Notes: generated from the letters alone by a model not told the origin. 64,000 nucleotides of DNA from Actinomycetota bacterium (GCA_014360645.1 JACIXD010000018.1:8638-72637), one strand, 5' to 3'; positions 4,024-62,307 are shown, numbered from the stretch's first letter. Translations and numbers: made by a program.

Positions 4024-5205
4024 ATGATCGGCCCTCGGAGCATCCTGGACACGGACCTCTACAAGCTCACCATGCAGCAGGCGGTGTGCAAGCTCTACCC
4101 TTGGTTCAAAGCGCGTTACCGGTTCATCAACCGCGGCGGGACCCCCTTCCCGCCGGGTTTCGGCGCGGAGCTGGCCGCCCGCGTGGAGGAGATGAGCGCC
4201 CTGCGCCTGAGCGCGGAGGAGAAGTCGTGGCTGGCGGGGAAGTGCAGGTACTTCAGCCCCGTCTACCTCGATTTCCTGGAGGGATACCGCTTCGACCCCT
4301 CCGAGGTGGACATCCGCCAGGAGGGCGGGGAGCTCTCCATCACCATCGAGGGCTACTGGTACACCACCATCCTCTGGGAGGTGCCCCTCATGGCCCTCAT
4401 CAGCGAGCTCTATTTCGAGATGACGGGCGAGAAGGAGCGGGCATACCCGGAGGAGAGGATCCGCGCCCTCAACCGGGAGAAGGCGCGCTTCTTCCGGGAA
4501 CACGGCATCCGTTTCGTGGACTTCGGCACCCGCAGGCGCTTCTCCTACGAGAACCACCGCCGGCTCATCCCCGACCTCATGGAGGCGGGGGAGTTCCTCC
4601 TGGGCACCAGCAACGTGCACCTCGCCCACCTCTATGACCTCACGCCCGTGGGCACCCAGGCCCACGAATGGTTCCAGTTCCACTCCGCCAAGTACGGTTT
4701 CCGCATGGCCAACCAGATGGCCTTGCAGCGCTGGATAGACGTGTACAAGGGCGACCTGGGCATCGCCCTCACCGACACCTTCGGGACCGAGAACTTCTTC
4801 CACGCCTTCGACGGATATTTCTCGCGCATCTTCGACGGGGTGCGGCAGGACTCCGGAGACCCTTTCCATTTCCTGGAATGTGCCATCGCGCACTACCGCA
4901 GGCTGGGCATAGATCCCGCGACCAAGACGGTGGTGTTCTCCGACTCCCTCAACCTGGAGCTCTCCCGCGCCCTGCACGAAGCCTGCGCGGGGCGGGTCAG
5001 GGACCTCTACGGCATCGGAACCTTCCTCACCAACGACGTGGGGGTCAAGCCCCTGAACATGGTGATCAAGATGGTGGCCTGCCAGCCCTTCTACGGCTCC
5101 GAGCGCTGGGTGGACGCCATCAAGATCTCAGACGACGAGGGCAAGTACACCGGCGCCAGGGAGGTCATAGAGCTGGCCCGCAGGACCCTTTTCCTGGAGG
5201 AGTGA
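4024..5205 (+). CDS. pncB: Nicotinate phosphoribosyltransferase
   Basis: Full-length similarity pattern to PncB (DLYKLTM, FGTRRR, GTSN, DSGD motifs). GGGGGGAAAG SD-like stretch lies before the ATG. Confidence 0.9.
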   Translation: MIGPRSILDTDLYKLTMQQAVCKLYPWFKARYRFINRGGTPFPPGFGAELAARVEEMSALRLSAEEKSWLAGKCRYFSPVYLDFLEGYRFDPSEVDIRQEGGELSITIEGYWYTTILWEVPLMALISELYFEMTGEKERAYPEERIRALNREKARFFREHGIRFVDFGTRRRFSYENHRRLIPDLMEAGEFLLGTSNVHLAHLYDLTPVGTQAHEWFQFHSAKYGFRMANQMALQRWIDVYKGDLGIALTDTFGTENFFHAFDGYFSRIFDGVRQDSGDPFHFLECAIAHYRRLGIDPATKTVVFSDSLNLELSRALHEACAGRVRDLYGIGTFLTNDVGVKPLNMVIKMVACQPFYGSERWVDAIKISDDEGKYTGAREVIELARRTLFLEE

Positions 5206-10916: not shown

Positions 10917-11843
10917 ATGAAGAGGTTCGAGGGGATCTTCGCGGTCATGCTCACCGCCTACGACGACTACGGGAACATAGACCGCGAGGCGATGCGGGAG
11001 ATGACGGAGTACTTGGTGGAGTCCGGAGTGCACGGCCTGGTGGTGCTGGGGAGCAACGGCGAGAACCCCTACCTCACCCACCACCACCAGAAGGACGCCA
11101 TCGACACGGTGGTGAACGCATGCGAGGGGCGCGTGCCGGTGATCGTGGGCGTGAACAAGCGCGGCACCGAGCCCGCGGTGGACATGTCCACCTACGCGGA
11201 GGAGGCGGGGGCCGACGGCATCCTGCTGGCCCTGCACCGCTTCTACGATCTGGACGAGGACGCGGTCTTCTCCTTCTACGAGGAGGTATGCGGCAGTGTA
11301 GGCCTGCCGGTGCTCTTCTATAACTTCCCGTCCAACACCGGCCTCGCCCTTCCCCCCGAGAGCATCGCGCGCCTCGCGTTGATCGACAACCTGGTGGGGG
11401 CGAAGGAGACCGTCTTCGAGGTGGACGAGGTGAGGCGCCTGGTGGAGGCCACGGACGATGATTTCTGCGTCTTCACCGGCATGACCTTCAACCTGGCCGA
11501 GACCATGGCCGTGGGGGCGTGCGGAGCCATCTGTCCCCTCCCCAACTTCATCCCCCGCGTCACCCTGGACCTCTACGAGGCATGCAGGTCCGGGGACGGC
11601 GACAGGGTGGCCGAGCTGCAGAAGGCGGTCTACGCATTGGCTCCCCTGCTGGCGTCAACCCCCACTCCCCACGCCATGCAGAAGGAGGCCCTGCGCTTGC
11701 TCGGCCATCCCGTGAAGCCCCACGTCAAGGGGCCGCTGCCGCGCCTCACCTCCGATCAGGCCAGGCTGGTGCGGGAGACCCTGGAGAACGCAGGACTTAT
11801 GGGGTCAGCCCCGGACATGGGACATTCGAGGCGAGACCCCTAG
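10917..11843 (+). CDS. Dihydrodipicolinate synthase/N-acetylneuraminate lyase (DapA) family protein
   Basis: TIM-barrel DapA-family pattern (GLVVLGSNGE, FYNFP, K in GAKE). The last 15 codons are supplied by a dispersed 27-nt repeat. Confidence 0.85.
   Translation: MKRFEGIFAVMLTAYDDYGNIDREAMREMTEYLVESGVHGLVVLGSNGENPYLTHHHQKDAIDTVVNACEGRVPVIVGVNKRGTEPAVDMSTYAEEAGADGILLALHRFYDLDEDAVFSFYEEVCGSVGLPVLFYNFPSNTGLALPPESIARLALIDNLVGAKETVFEVDEVRRLVEATDDDFCVFTGMTFNLAETMAVGACGAICPLPNFIPRVTLDLYEACRSGDGDRVAELQKAVYALAPLLASTPTPHAMQKEALRLLGHPVKPHVKGPLPRLTSDQARLVRETLENAGLMGSAPDMGHSRRDP
11799..11825 (-). repeat. Copy of the 27-nt dispersed repeat ATGTCCCATGTCCGGGGCTGACCCCAT (reverse orientation)
   Basis: Exact reverse complement of the copies at 31994-32020 and 32059-32085. 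Confidence 0.95.
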
Positions 11844-11931
11844 GGCCTCTCCTTCGGGGAGAGCGAGCGCATGGAGCTCATGGAGGTCCTTCCGGCCGGG
11901 CGCCGGAGGGCATGAGGCAGGAGGATGGCAG

Positions 11932-12015
11932 GTGAAGACCTGGGGCCTCTCCTTCGGGGAGAGCGAGCGCATGGAGCTCATGGAGGTCCTTCCGGCCGGG
12001 CGCCGGAGGGCATGA
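11932..12015 (+). other. 27-codon decoy ORF created by the tandem unit (MKTWGLSFGESERMELMEVLPAGRRRA)
   Basis: GTG preceded by AGGAGGAtggcag. It shares its first 16 codons with ORF 12132 (one E-S/E-N difference). Confidence 0.3.
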
Positions 12016-12031
12016 GGCAGGAGGATGGCAG

Positions 12032-12115
12032 GTGAAGACCTGGGGCCTCTCCTTCGGGGAGAACGAGCGCATGGAGCTCATGGAGGTCCTTCCGGACGGA
12101 CGCCGGAGGGCATGA
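12032..12115 (+). other. Second 27-codon decoy ORF created by the tandem unit
   Basis: Same structure as 11932..12015, with PDGRRRA at the end. Confidence 0.3.
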
Positions 12116-12131
12116 GGCAGGAGGATGGCAG

Positions 12132-12356
12132 GTGAAGACCTGGGGCCTCTCCTTCGGGGAGAACGAGCGCATGGAGCTGGAGCGCATCGTGCTGGACGGG
12201 GACAGCGAGGCGGCGCTGCTCTTCCTGCGCAAGGTCATCTACCCGAAGGTGAAGGAGAGCGAGAAGCCGGGGAGTTGTTTCCACGATCCCTCGAAGCCGG
12301 TGGAGCAGCTTGAACGCCCGGTGGACAAGCATAAGAAACTGGGTGATTTCCGCTGA
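12132..12356 (+). CDS. Hypothetical small protein (74 aa)
   Basis: GTG start 6 nt after AGGAGGA. High-GC3 codons. No family recognised. Confidence 0.5.
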   Translation: MKTWGLSFGENERMELERIVLDGDSEAALLFLRKVIYPKVKESEKPGSCFHDPSKPVEQLERPVDKHKKLGDFR

Positions 12357-26480: not shown

Positions 26481-26589
26481 CCGGCCGGGGAAGCAGATCA
26501 TCCGGAAGGGTGTGACTGGAGAATTTTGACAAAGAGCGGCGTAGGGGGAGAAGCCGGCCGGGGAAGCAGATCATCCGGAAGGGTGTGAC
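26481..26589. repeat. 36-bp perfect direct repeat pair (26481-26516 and 26554-26589, period 73)
   Basis: CCGGCCGGGGAAGCAGATCATCCGGAAGGGTGTGAC occurs twice, starting 3 nt after the stop of the Fe-S gene and upstream of ftsH. Confidence 0.95.
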
Positions 26590-29525: not shown

Positions 29526-30174
29526 TAATCACGAAGGTGTGGGCGATCTTGTCGTGCCACGCCTGCTTGCGGTCGTCGAAACCCGCCCATATGTATCCCA
29601 GGGCGCACACCAGCCCCGAGAGGAACTTTCCCACGATCTCCCGGAGCGCGGCGGTACCGTAGGAGACCGGACCCATGTCCTCTCCCACCACCTTGAGTTT
29701 GAGGAGCATCTTGCCCAGCGTTGCGCCGTAGCGGCCCGTCATCACGGTGTAGTAAGCCCAGCCCACCCCGATACGGATCAGGTTGAAGAGGATCACCAGC
29801 CCCACGCTTACCCCTTCTCTCCAGTCCCAGGAGCCCCAGAAATTAAACCTGTCGCTCAGGGCAGAGAAGATGAGGTTGAGGGGCAAGAAGGCCGCGGAGA
29901 CGATGATGCCGTCGATGAAGGCGGCCACGAAGCGGATCCAGAAACCGGCATAGCGCGGATAGCCGGGCTGCGGGTACTGATGACCGGGCGGGTATGCCTG
30001 ACCTCCCGGAGGCGGTGGATAAGCCTGTCCGCCCGGCGGAGGCGGGTATGCCTGACCTCCCGGAGGCGGGTATGCCTGACCTCCCGGCGGAGGTGTTCCG
30101 AAGGAGTAGGCGCAGCCGGAACAGAAGGCTGCGTCATCGGGATTCTCCGCCCCGCAGCTCGGACACCTTTTCAT
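29512..30174 (-). CDS. RDD family membrane protein with N-terminal zinc ribbon and Pro/Gly/Gln-rich tandem repeat linker
   Basis: CPSCG..FCSGC ribbon, (PPGGQAY)x4 linker and an RDD-type 3-TM domain. Overlaps the end of the convergent neighbour by 14 nt. Confidence 0.8.
   Translation of the reverse strand: MKRCPSCGAENPDDAAFCSGCAYSFGTPPPGGQAYPPPGGQAYPPPPGGQAYPPPPGGQAYPPGHQYPQPGYPRYAGFWIRFVAAFIDGIIVSAAFLPLNLIFSALSDRFNFWGSWDWREGVSVGLVILFNLIRIGVGWAYYTVMTGRYGATLGKMLLKLKVVGEDMGPVSYGTAALREIVGKFLSGLVCALGYIWAGFDDRKQAWHDKIAHTFVIITGP
29985..30095 (-). repeat. Coding tandem repeat (about 24-30 nt units) encoding PPGGQAYP repeats
   Basis: GGGTATGCCTGACCTCCCGGAGGC recurs three times with one variant unit. 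Boundaries are approximate. Confidence 0.8.
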
Positions 30175-30573: not shown

Positions 30574-31662
30574 ATGGGAGAGCGGATCGTAGTCGGCGCG
30601 GGACTGGCAGGCCTGTGCGCGGCCATCAACATCCGGCGCGATGGTCACGAGGTCAGGGTGCTCGAGAGGCGCGACGGCATCGGCGGCCCGGCGCGCGACA
30701 TGTCCACCGGGGAACTCACCTACGTCATGGCTGACGGCACTCCCATGGAGGTGGACAAGCTCTCGCGTTACATCGGTATCGATATCGGCCCAGCCTGCGA
30801 GCCCCTCCACTCCACGCGCATCTACAGCTTCGGGAAGCGTTTCGACCTGGCCTTCCCCGAGAACGTCCCGGCGGTGCTGGTCGAGAGGGGTTCGCGCAAG
30901 GACTCCCTGGACATGCACCTCTACCGCATCGCGGTGGATGAGGGGGTGGTCTTCGAGTTCAACCACCCCTTAAAGACGCGCCGGGACTTCGACGCCCTAC
31001 CCCCCGGGACCATCATCGCCGGCGGGCTCTTCGAGGACGCCTACGCGGCGCTGGGCATCCCCTACGTGCGCGTGGAGGGGCTCTTCGGGCAGGGCATGGT
31101 CGCCGAAGACTACACCGGGCCGAGCGTCATCCTCTACATGGACCGCTATACGTGGGATTACGCCTTCTTCTCCACCATCCACGGCGTGGCCGGAGCCCTG
31201 CTCTTCCAGCGCAAGAAGCCCCTCTCCGCCGAGGCCAAGGAATGGTTCCCCGCCCGCCTCGCAAGGGACGAGGGAATCGAGTTCCCGGAGTGGCACGAGC
31301 TGGATGTGGGAGTCCTGCCCATGGGGTCCATCAACAACCCGCGCCTCTTCCACGACAGGTTCATCCTGGCCGGGACCCTGGCCGGGGCGCAGGACCCCGT
31401 CCTCCTCTTCGGGGTACACGGGGCCCTGGTCACCGGCAGGATCGCGGCCATGGCCCTGAGCCGGCCCGAGGAGGCGCGGCGGGAGTTCCGCAAGATCAAC
31501 CTGCTGTGGAAGTTGAGCTACCTGAACCGGCTCGCCATCGAGCGCACCCATCCCTACGGGATCATGATCGCCAACCGGGCGGCCCTTCCTCTCTATCCGC
31601 TATATTCCCGGTTCCTGCTGCGCTACGCCTTCCTCTTCGTGCCGGGCTGGCTGAGGGTGTGA
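30574..31662 (+). CDS. NAD(P)/FAD-dependent oxidoreductase (geranylgeranyl-reductase-like)
   Basis: The N-terminal IVVGAGLAGLCAA..E dinucleotide-binding motif. ATG follows GGGGAGGGGGAG. Confidence 0.75.
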   Translation: MGERIVVGAGLAGLCAAINIRRDGHEVRVLERRDGIGGPARDMSTGELTYVMADGTPMEVDKLSRYIGIDIGPACEPLHSTRIYSFGKRFDLAFPENVPAVLVERGSRKDSLDMHLYRIAVDEGVVFEFNHPLKTRRDFDALPPGTIIAGGLFEDAYAALGIPYVRVEGLFGQGMVAEDYTGPSVILYMDRYTWDYAFFSTIHGVAGALLFQRKKPLSAEAKEWFPARLARDEGIEFPEWHELDVGVLPMGSINNPRLFHDRFILAGTLAGAQDPVLLFGVHGALVTGRIAAMALSRPEEARREFRKINLLWKLSYLNRLAIERTHPYGIMIANRAALPLYPLYSRFLLRYAFLFVPGWLRV

Positions 31663-31831
31663 GTGAGGACCTGGGTGGGGATACGCTACCGGTGTCCCAT
31701 GTCCGGGTCCGACCCCGCTGGCCCGGTTCCTGCTGCGCTACGCCTTCCTCTTCGTGCCGGGCTGGCTGAGGGTGTGAGTGAGGACCTGGGTGGGGATACG
31801 CTACCGGTGTCCCATGTCCGGGTCCGACCCC
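31607..31831 (+). repeat. 110-bp perfect direct duplication (31607-31716 and 31722-31831, period 115)
   Basis: Duplicates the last 18 codons + stop of the oxidoreductase gene plus 54 bp downstream, including one copy of the dispersed repeat. Confidence 0.95.
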
Positions 31832-32085
31832 ATTGGCGTTGCTCCGGTGTCCCATGTCCGGGTCCGACCCCATTGACGTTGGTTGTAGTAGACTGGAACC
31901 GAAATGTGGGGGCTGCGGAGGCGGGCCGGAGAAGGCGTGAGGTGGGATTATGCGTGGGGTCGAAGTGGGCTGGAGGGCAGGAGAGGATTTACGATGTCCC
32001 ATGTCCGGGGCTGACCCCATTGTGAGGTGGAGGCGCCGCCGGTCTGGATGGCGGTCAAATGTCCCATGTCCGGGGCTGACCCCAT
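31692..32085 (+). repeat. Cluster of five copies of the 25-27-nt dispersed repeat (two sequence variants)
   Basis: GTGTCCCATGTCCGGGTCCGACCCC(AT) at 31692, 31807 and 31847. ATGTCCCATGTCCGGGGCTGACCCCAT at 31994 and 32059. Confidence 0.95.
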
Positions 32086-62046: not shown

Positions 62047-62307
62047 CTACTTCTTCGCCGGCTTCTTGGCGGCCGTCTTCTTGGCGGGCTTCTTGGCCGC
62101 TGCCTTCTTCGCCGGCTTCTTGGCGGCCGTCTTCTTGGCGGGCTTCTTGGCCGCTGCCTTCTTCGCCGGCTTCTTGGCGGCCGGCTTCTTGGCCGCCGGC
62201 TTCTTGGCGGCCGTCTTCTTGGCGGGCTTCTTGGCCGCTGCCTTCTTCGCCGGCTTCTTGGCGGCCGGCTTCTTGGCCGCCGGCTTCTTGGCGGGTTTCG
62301 TAGCCAT
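62047..62307 (-). CDS. Histone H1-like Lys/Ala/Pro repeat protein (86 aa)
   Basis: [36 protein letters not shown].. throughout. Strong SD AAAGGAGTGA before the ATG. The DNA is itself tandemly repetitive. Confidence 0.75.

Follow-up and report, generated by a model that had tools for sequence, protein, structure and literature searches.

A 100-bp tandem array carrying the start of a conserved small gene beside a REP element in an Actinomycetota genome

Tandem amplifications in bacteria are reportedly seeded by short direct repeats and then expanded by unequal recombination or slippage, a scheme associated with Roth and colleagues. Regulatory leader peptides, upstream open reading frames (ORFs) and translational coupling are a second well-known class of arrangement in front of genes, with the trpL and ermC leaders as examples. 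A third is formed by the REP/REPIN-RAYT systems and their tandem clusters (Bertels & Rainey 2011, PMC3116915; Bertels et al. 2017, PMC5581495), among which the tandem repeats of REPINs in Pseudomonas take in flanking sequence (PMC3116915).

We analyzed a 64-kb stretch of an Actinomycetota genome assembly (hereafter the window, to which all coordinates refer unless a contig is named), in which a 100-bp array precedes a gene for a 74-aa protein. The array resembles bacterial minisatellite (VNTR) loci in its head-to-tail units of constant length and near-identical sequence, in the presence of a pre-existing 36-38-nt direct repeat at the proper spacing, in a junction structure of the kind that unequal crossover predicts, and in a copy number that differs among close strains, the 3.4-unit state being known from one assembly. 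It differs from such loci in that its unit carries a full translation-initiation region and 16 codons, so that each copy yields a new small ORF, and in that the evidence for its copy-number variation comes from comparing assemblies and not from a single culture. Leader peptides share with it the short, SD-bearing ORFs upstream of a gene on the same presumed transcript and a short-ORF stop codon near the next SD and start; unlike them, the array has no conservation, regulatory codons or alternative RNA structures, and its ORFs are truncated copies of the gene's own N-terminus, born of duplication. As in REP/REPIN-RAYT systems, the 27-nt element beside the array is highly repeated, forms hairpin inverted doublets and brackets a Y1/HUH transposase gene, and a cluster at 31.6 kb matches the flank-including tandem repeats of Pseudomonas (PMC3116915). 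Here, however, the 100-bp array itself lacks a REP, the RAYT has a C-terminal DnaA-type HTH and scores under the NCBIfam RAYT cut-off, and the host belongs to an uncultured actinomycete clade, not to the Proteobacteria.

The array is an ordinary lineage-specific tandem amplification beside a REP and ahead of a conserved small gene. We consider it probable that the amplification was recent and strain-specific and that it has no dedicated function. Its interest lies in being a clean natural example of a short relic repeat that seeds tandem amplification and in showing that such amplifications create new small ORFs complete with ribosome-binding sites. As a discovery the array matters little, and the side results on the small-protein family and the REP/REPIN-RAYT system are perhaps more useful.

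The array and the genes on either side

Tandem Repeats Finder reported a single array at 11839-12178 (period 100, 3.4 copies, 98 % matches, score 645), with units starting at 11841, 11941 and 12041 and a partial fourth at 12141. Its longest exact internal repeat is 120 nt, which excludes a chance origin. The unit comprises the ribosome-binding site and the first 16 codons of the small conserved gene. Unit 1 (11841-11940, plus strand) consists of a 38-nt relic of the gene's 5′ end, a 53-nt leader with the SD, and then GTGAAGACC; it is the counterpart of the sole full unit in three relatives described below (L001, L155 and L152). Unit 2 (11941-12040, plus strand) is an extra unit, not found in these relatives, and reads as unit 1 with G for A at position 2, the single base (TAG/TGG) by which the two are distinguished. 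Unit 3 (12041-12140, plus strand) departs from unit 2 at three positions, 23, 56 and 60; since its A60 also occurs in L155, this base represents a natural allele and not an error. The partial unit 4 (12141-12178, plus strand) coincides with codons 4-16 of the real gene, and identity to the array ends there after 38 nt, at 12178.

A preceding examination of the same DNA (the sequence-only reading) had described a 100-bp array with one base between its first two copies and three further differences in the third, beginning on the stop codon of a DapA-family gene and abutting a dispersed 27-nt repeat. Tandem Repeats Finder and the comparison of units bore out this description. The array begins on the TAG (11841-11843) of a gene matching Pfam DHDPS at 1e-59, which forms the first triplet of unit 1, and the 27-nt repeat, whose 15-nt core has six exact copies in the window against 0.35 expected, sits 13-15 nt away.

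The DHDPS/DapA-family gene (10917-11843, plus strand) encodes 308 aa, with the Pfam match covering residues 4-291. Its last 14 codons (LMGSAPDMGHSRRDP, followed by the stop) derive from the REP element and the decayed relic, not from native DapA sequence, and in the relatives L004, L006 and L153 the protein ends directly in ..ENAGLI or ..EAAGMI. The REP singlet ATGGGGTCAGCCCCGGACATGGGACAT (11799-11825, plus strand) lies inserted at the ancestral DapA stop position. In the window's clade, the singlet took the place of the last DapA codon and the stop, which produced the tail MGSAPDMGHSRRDP. A short linker (11826-11843, plus strand) follows, with the present DapA stop as its last triplet, and may represent a decayed remnant of the relic's start-codon region. 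The present stop (TAG in the window, TGA in L152) aligns with the TGG codon for Trp4 of the small gene. An exact look-up of the tailed DapA protein returned no record.

Downstream of the array, the small gene (12132-12356, plus strand; GTG start, SD at 12119-12124) encodes the 74-aa protein that the sequence-only reading had placed at these positions. The same reading had called the gene an orphan, a label that proved wrong: we found 103 close homologues with 61-89 % identity, in uncultured Actinomycetota annotated as Candidatus Solincola, Geothermincola or Anoxymicrobiaceae, and an exhaustive profile search added about 115 more distant representatives, which are mostly stand-alone proteins of 50-75 aa sharing the N-terminal 45 residues. 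The N-terminus xxTWG[LIV]SFGExERMELERIV is conserved among the homologues, which confirms the GTG start and shows that what the array duplicates is true coding sequence. By sequence similarity, the protein is assigned to a widespread, unnamed family of small proteins. The small protein had no match in Pfam, NCBIfam, a PDB profile search or a Foldseek search against PDB, and the distant members likewise matched no Pfam family. It has an N-terminal helical hairpin and a Cys/His-containing tail, and its AlphaFold model is confident only at the hairpin, residues 10-43. Members P0106-P0221 of the family show a motif like (W/T)A(V/I)S..E.E..ELE.I(V/I).D.D...AL.FL followed by a Cys/His-containing tail, and one of them, P0108, is fused to a zinc ribbon and a membrane region.

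Unit number among relatives and the origin of the array

Unit number was compared across three independent assemblies of the window's clade: a Logan contig from SRR27800363 (L001, 99.3 % identical to the window), the NCBI MAG contig JASEGD010000017.1 (L155, 98-99 %) and FWPV01006967.1 (L152, 92-96 %). In L152 the gene order is that of the window, namely amylase, CoA-transferase, DHDPS, small gene, glutamine cyclotransferase and RRM protein. The polymorphism in unit number that the sequence-only reading had proposed to look for in related genomes was found, with 1.4 units in all three assemblies versus 3.4 in the window, and with 88-89 nt versus 288 nt from the DapA stop to the GTG. The three relatives share one layout, in which the 27-nt element is followed by a stop-bearing linker, by 36-38 nt copied from the gene's 5′ end, by the remaining 62 nt of the unit and finally by the gene; in each, the relic lies 100 nt upstream of the real copy. 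Relic and gene copy differ at 6 of 38 positions in L155 and at 3 in L152, and in the window the relic is the same as the gene copy or one base off. The relic is decaying in the relatives and homogenized in the window. Position 23 is G or A depending on the strain, and relic and gene agree at it in L001, L155 and L152, which hints at gene conversion, although no more than a hint can be drawn from three cases.

In 30 further species-level genomes that keep the small gene, neither an upstream tandem repeat nor a relic copy was present, and an independent recurrence of the relic in other lineages was ruled out since none of these species has one. The order DHDPS-small gene is kept in many of the 30, with spacers of 56 to 461 nt; where the spacer is short, DapA ends in ..ENAGLI and a -10-like box (GGTATCAT) follows. 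In L008 and L013 this DHDPS-small gene spacer is occupied, some 60-130 nt before the small gene, by a different inverted-repeat element with arms like GTGCCTGGACATGTTA and AACATGTCCAGGCCTGGCAC. It has a GGACATG core in common with the REP and could represent another REPIN family.

On the comparison of these loci, the clade's ancestral state has 1.4 units, to which the window adds two. The comparison shows a first step in which a REP landed on the DapA stop codon in the ancestor of the clade, and a 36-38-nt copy of the gene's 5′ end came to lie just past the new stop, separated by 62 nt from the real copy downstream, the outcome being the 1.4-unit state that persists and decays in the relatives. 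In a second step, the relic and the real 5′ end would have undergone unequal homologous recombination or replication slippage, and whole 100-bp units would later have done the same, adding two units in the window's strain. The gene-type TGG opens units 2 and 3, and the relic-type junction, GAGCT joined to CATGGAGG, closes them, which is the product expected of a relic-gene unequal crossover or slippage. The TAG/TGG base is the only difference between units 1 and 2, so the last addition must be very recent. Weak similarity runs past the 38-nt block on both sides, suggesting that an older, longer duplication may lie behind the relic. Near-perfect tandem duplications are otherwise common in these genomes. 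Of the three meanings that the sequence-only reading had offered, a very recent slippage amplification fits best, given the 1.4-unit relatives and the near-identity of units 1 and 2.

Another of these meanings, an assembly artefact, we regard as unlikely; on this view the true genome has 1.4 or 2.4 units and the assembler over-cycled its graph or threaded the G23 and A23 strain alleles serially. It is favored by the occurrence of 3.4 units in this one assembly alone: the leader and start sequence had 0 exact matches in public metagenome contigs, and a homology search with an antisense ORF that is possible only at 2.4 units or more returned no homologue and no second multi-unit assembly. With a longest exact repeat of 120 nt, short-read k-mers of up to 120 cannot count units 1 and 2, and 62 identical nt connect unit 2 to unit 3 across the allele switch. 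Both position-23 alleles are present in sister samples (G in L156 and L160, A in L157), making strain mixing plausible. Against this, De Bruijn assemblers tend to collapse tandem repeats, not to expand them, and any k above 38 demands real reads that join the TGG, the 5′ copy and the leader, a junction absent at 1.4 units, so that some strain probably does have 2.4 units or more. The other two tandem duplications of the window are, moreover, reproduced in an independent assembly (L163, see below).

Logan contigs assembled at k=31 from three samples (L156, L157 and L160, 99.9-100 % identical to the window) all start at 12149, exactly 30 nt (k-1) before the point where array and gene diverge, which indicates that the same 30-mer has two continuations in those samples. 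These breaks fit 3.4 units as well as any state in which two 5′ copies share at least 30 identical nt, such as 1.4 units with homogenized copies, and give no unit count. Of the artefact claim, then, one part stands, in that the exact unit number may be miscounted, and the other falls, the underlying 1.4-unit architecture being real in three other assemblies. For annotation, the case advises caution with unit numbers from metagenome assemblies, which are uncertain where exact repeats exceed 100 nt.

The REP element and neighboring duplications

The 27-nt repeat has as its consensus the self-contained 27-mer aATGGGGTCAGCCCCGGACATGGGACAt. Its 24-nt core found at least 120 matching stretches in public metagenome contigs and at least 186 exact copies in 765 kb. 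Among the matches listed, 16 were inverted pairs spaced 60-69 nt apart, and perfect direct arrays with periods of 32, 39, 47 or 48 nt were also seen. Four inverted doublets fold as long hairpins (z = -9 to -13). The only stem within a single REP is a 4-bp GGGG/CCCC pairing (-3.9 kcal/mol), a stability that shuffled sequences match. A 327-aa ORF is bracketed by inverted copies in L111 and L084 and by copies in direct orientation in L138. Two of the three RAYT-type proteins scanned match Pfam Y1_Tnp at 33-44 bits (cut-off 23). The RAYT-type ORF also carries a C-terminal DnaA-type HTH, and its best NCBIfam match is REP_Tyr_transpos (REP-associated tyrosine transposase) at 58 bits, under the cut-off of 80. 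Its 3′ REP copy encodes the last residues and the stop codon of the protein. Given the hairpin-forming inverted doublets and the copies flanking a Y1_Tnp ORF, the 27-nt element is identified, from sequence and predicted fold, as the REP of a RAYT-type (Y1/HUH) transposase, with the inverted doublets as its REPINs. A CRISPR was rejected for this repeat on account of its irregular spacing (115, 40, 147 and 65) and its nature as a RAYT-flanking REP. The element is abundant in uncultured Solincola/Geothermincola-like Actinomycetota (loci L111, L084, L138 and L007), and the abundant REP/REPIN-RAYT system of this clade rewrites the ends of genes, namely the DapA stop and the RAYT's own C-terminus.

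A five-REP cluster lies at 31692-32085 on the minus strand (31692-31718, 31807-31833, 31847-31873, 31994-32020 and 32059-32085). It overlaps two further tandem duplications, both on the plus strand: a 115-bp unit present twice at 31607-31836, made up of 56 nt from the 3′ end of an FAD-oxidoreductase-like gene, then a spacer and one REP copy, and a 40-bp unit present twice at 31804-31883, consisting of a REP copy with 13 nt of flank. Both are reproduced at 3534-3808 of L163, an independent JGI assembly with 99.4-99.8 % identity, where two SNPs distinguish the copies. Their presence in an independent assembly indicates that these duplications are real and stable.

The proximity of REPs to duplications raises the further explanation that the REP/RAYT system caused them, single-strand nicking or a hairpin at an adjacent REP leading to template switching, to the relic and to a duplication-prone site of the kind seen in REP clusters. 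Each of the three perfect long-period duplications of the window either includes a REP or has one no more than 15 nt away; a REP is found within 6 of 11 near-perfect duplications in REP-bearing metagenome loci, with periods of 32-48 nt among the matches listed, a count that is biased because these loci were chosen for carrying the REP. The adjacency of REP and relic is ancestral, and flank-including tandem repeats of REPINs have a precedent in Pseudomonas (PMC3116915). This adjacency is suggestive of a promotion of neighboring duplications by REP/RAYT. As the cause of the array, however, the system is a doubtful candidate, less credible than an assembly error: the 100-bp unit holds no REP, duplications of 54, 83, 128 and 138 bp are found without the element, homology alone suffices to go from 1.4 to 3.4 units, and a search of the 64-kb window for a RAYT gene found none.

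Three other repeats were noted in the window. At 29987-30093, just upstream of the FAD-oxidoreductase-like gene region, a repeat with a period of 24-27 nt, also readable as 54 bp x 2 (GGCGGGTATGCCTGACCTCCCGGAGG...), is present in about four copies; L163 has only two 24-nt copies there. A long repeat at 62050-62294, with periods of 15, 54 and 84 nt (GCCGGCTTCTTGGCG...), probably corresponds, on the minus strand, to coding sequence for a low-complexity segment rich in Lys and Ala. Identical 36-nt direct repeats (CCGGCCGGGGAAGCAGATCATCCGGAAGGGTGTGAC) occupy 26481-26516 and 26554-26589, 73 nt apart.

Short ORFs and the regulatory reading

The amplified units contain two complete short ORFs on the plus strand, at 11932-12015 (27 codons, MKTWGLSFGESERMEL followed by MEVLPAGRRRA and the stop; SD AGGAGG at 11919-11924) and at 12032-12115 (27 codons; SD AGGAGG at 12019-12024). 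Both, like the 74-aa ORF, start with GTG and have AGGAGG 7 nt upstream. Each ends at a TGA in the leader, 16 nt ahead of the next GTG, exactly as the sequence-only reading had it for two 27-codon ORFs with SDs of their own. Because the unit consists of an SD, a GTG and 16 codons and its length is not a multiple of 3, every extra unit automatically yields such a 27-codon ORF, and the short ORFs are automatic by-products of the duplication. Sharing the gene's SD and start context exactly, they are probably translated. They may mildly alter ribosome traffic into the real gene, and nothing indicates selection for such an effect.

The remaining meaning offered by the sequence-only reading was a copy-number-tunable translational decoy, in which the decoy cistrons would capture ribosomes or pass them on by termination-reinitiation and unit number would set the output of the small protein. 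Such a selected device is, in our assessment, highly improbable. It would accord with the gene's strong SD and start in each short ORF, with stops 16 nt before the next GTG and 3 nt before the next SD, with the difference in unit number between close strains, and with an independent 5′-end duplication that has a stop/start overlap (ATGA) and is kept at 89 % identity in L003. Yet no complete decoy ORF exists in L001, L155 or L152, the leader is unstructured, the stop/SD geometry simply comes with the leader that was already there, and 100-bp units are unlike known phase-variable repeats. The extra units recur in no relative, including the 30 species that keep the small gene with no repeat at all; the sequence-only reading had itself named relatives of this kind, conserving the gene and lacking the repeat, as speaking against a regulatory role.

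Scans for regulatory signals gave a similar picture. No sigma-70 promoter or intrinsic terminator was found between 10.5 and 13 kb, and Rfam returned no family over the whole window. Predicted folding of the window's units, leaders and whole array gave z-scores of +0.7 to -1.3, and the L152 leader gave -2.6. A riboswitch or attenuator was rejected because the folding of units, leaders and whole array is nothing unusual, and a phase-variable contingency repeat because the unit is 100 nt long and the frame, SD and start of the gene stay unchanged at any unit number.

A still bolder version, in which selection maintains the array as a rapidly reversible ladder of decoy cistrons that tunes ribosome supply to the small gene and the L003 duplication is a second instance of it, likewise stands at the far edge of plausibility; if true, it would represent a new kind of copy-number-based translational control in bacteria. 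The duplication in L003, which belongs to another species, lies at 4327-4574 of that contig as a 128-bp unit in 1.9 copies with 89 % identity. It copies the SD, the ATG and part of the lipoprotein signal peptide of the glutamine cyclotransferase gene that adjoins the small gene, and the upstream copy forms an out-of-frame ORF whose TGA overlaps the real ATG.
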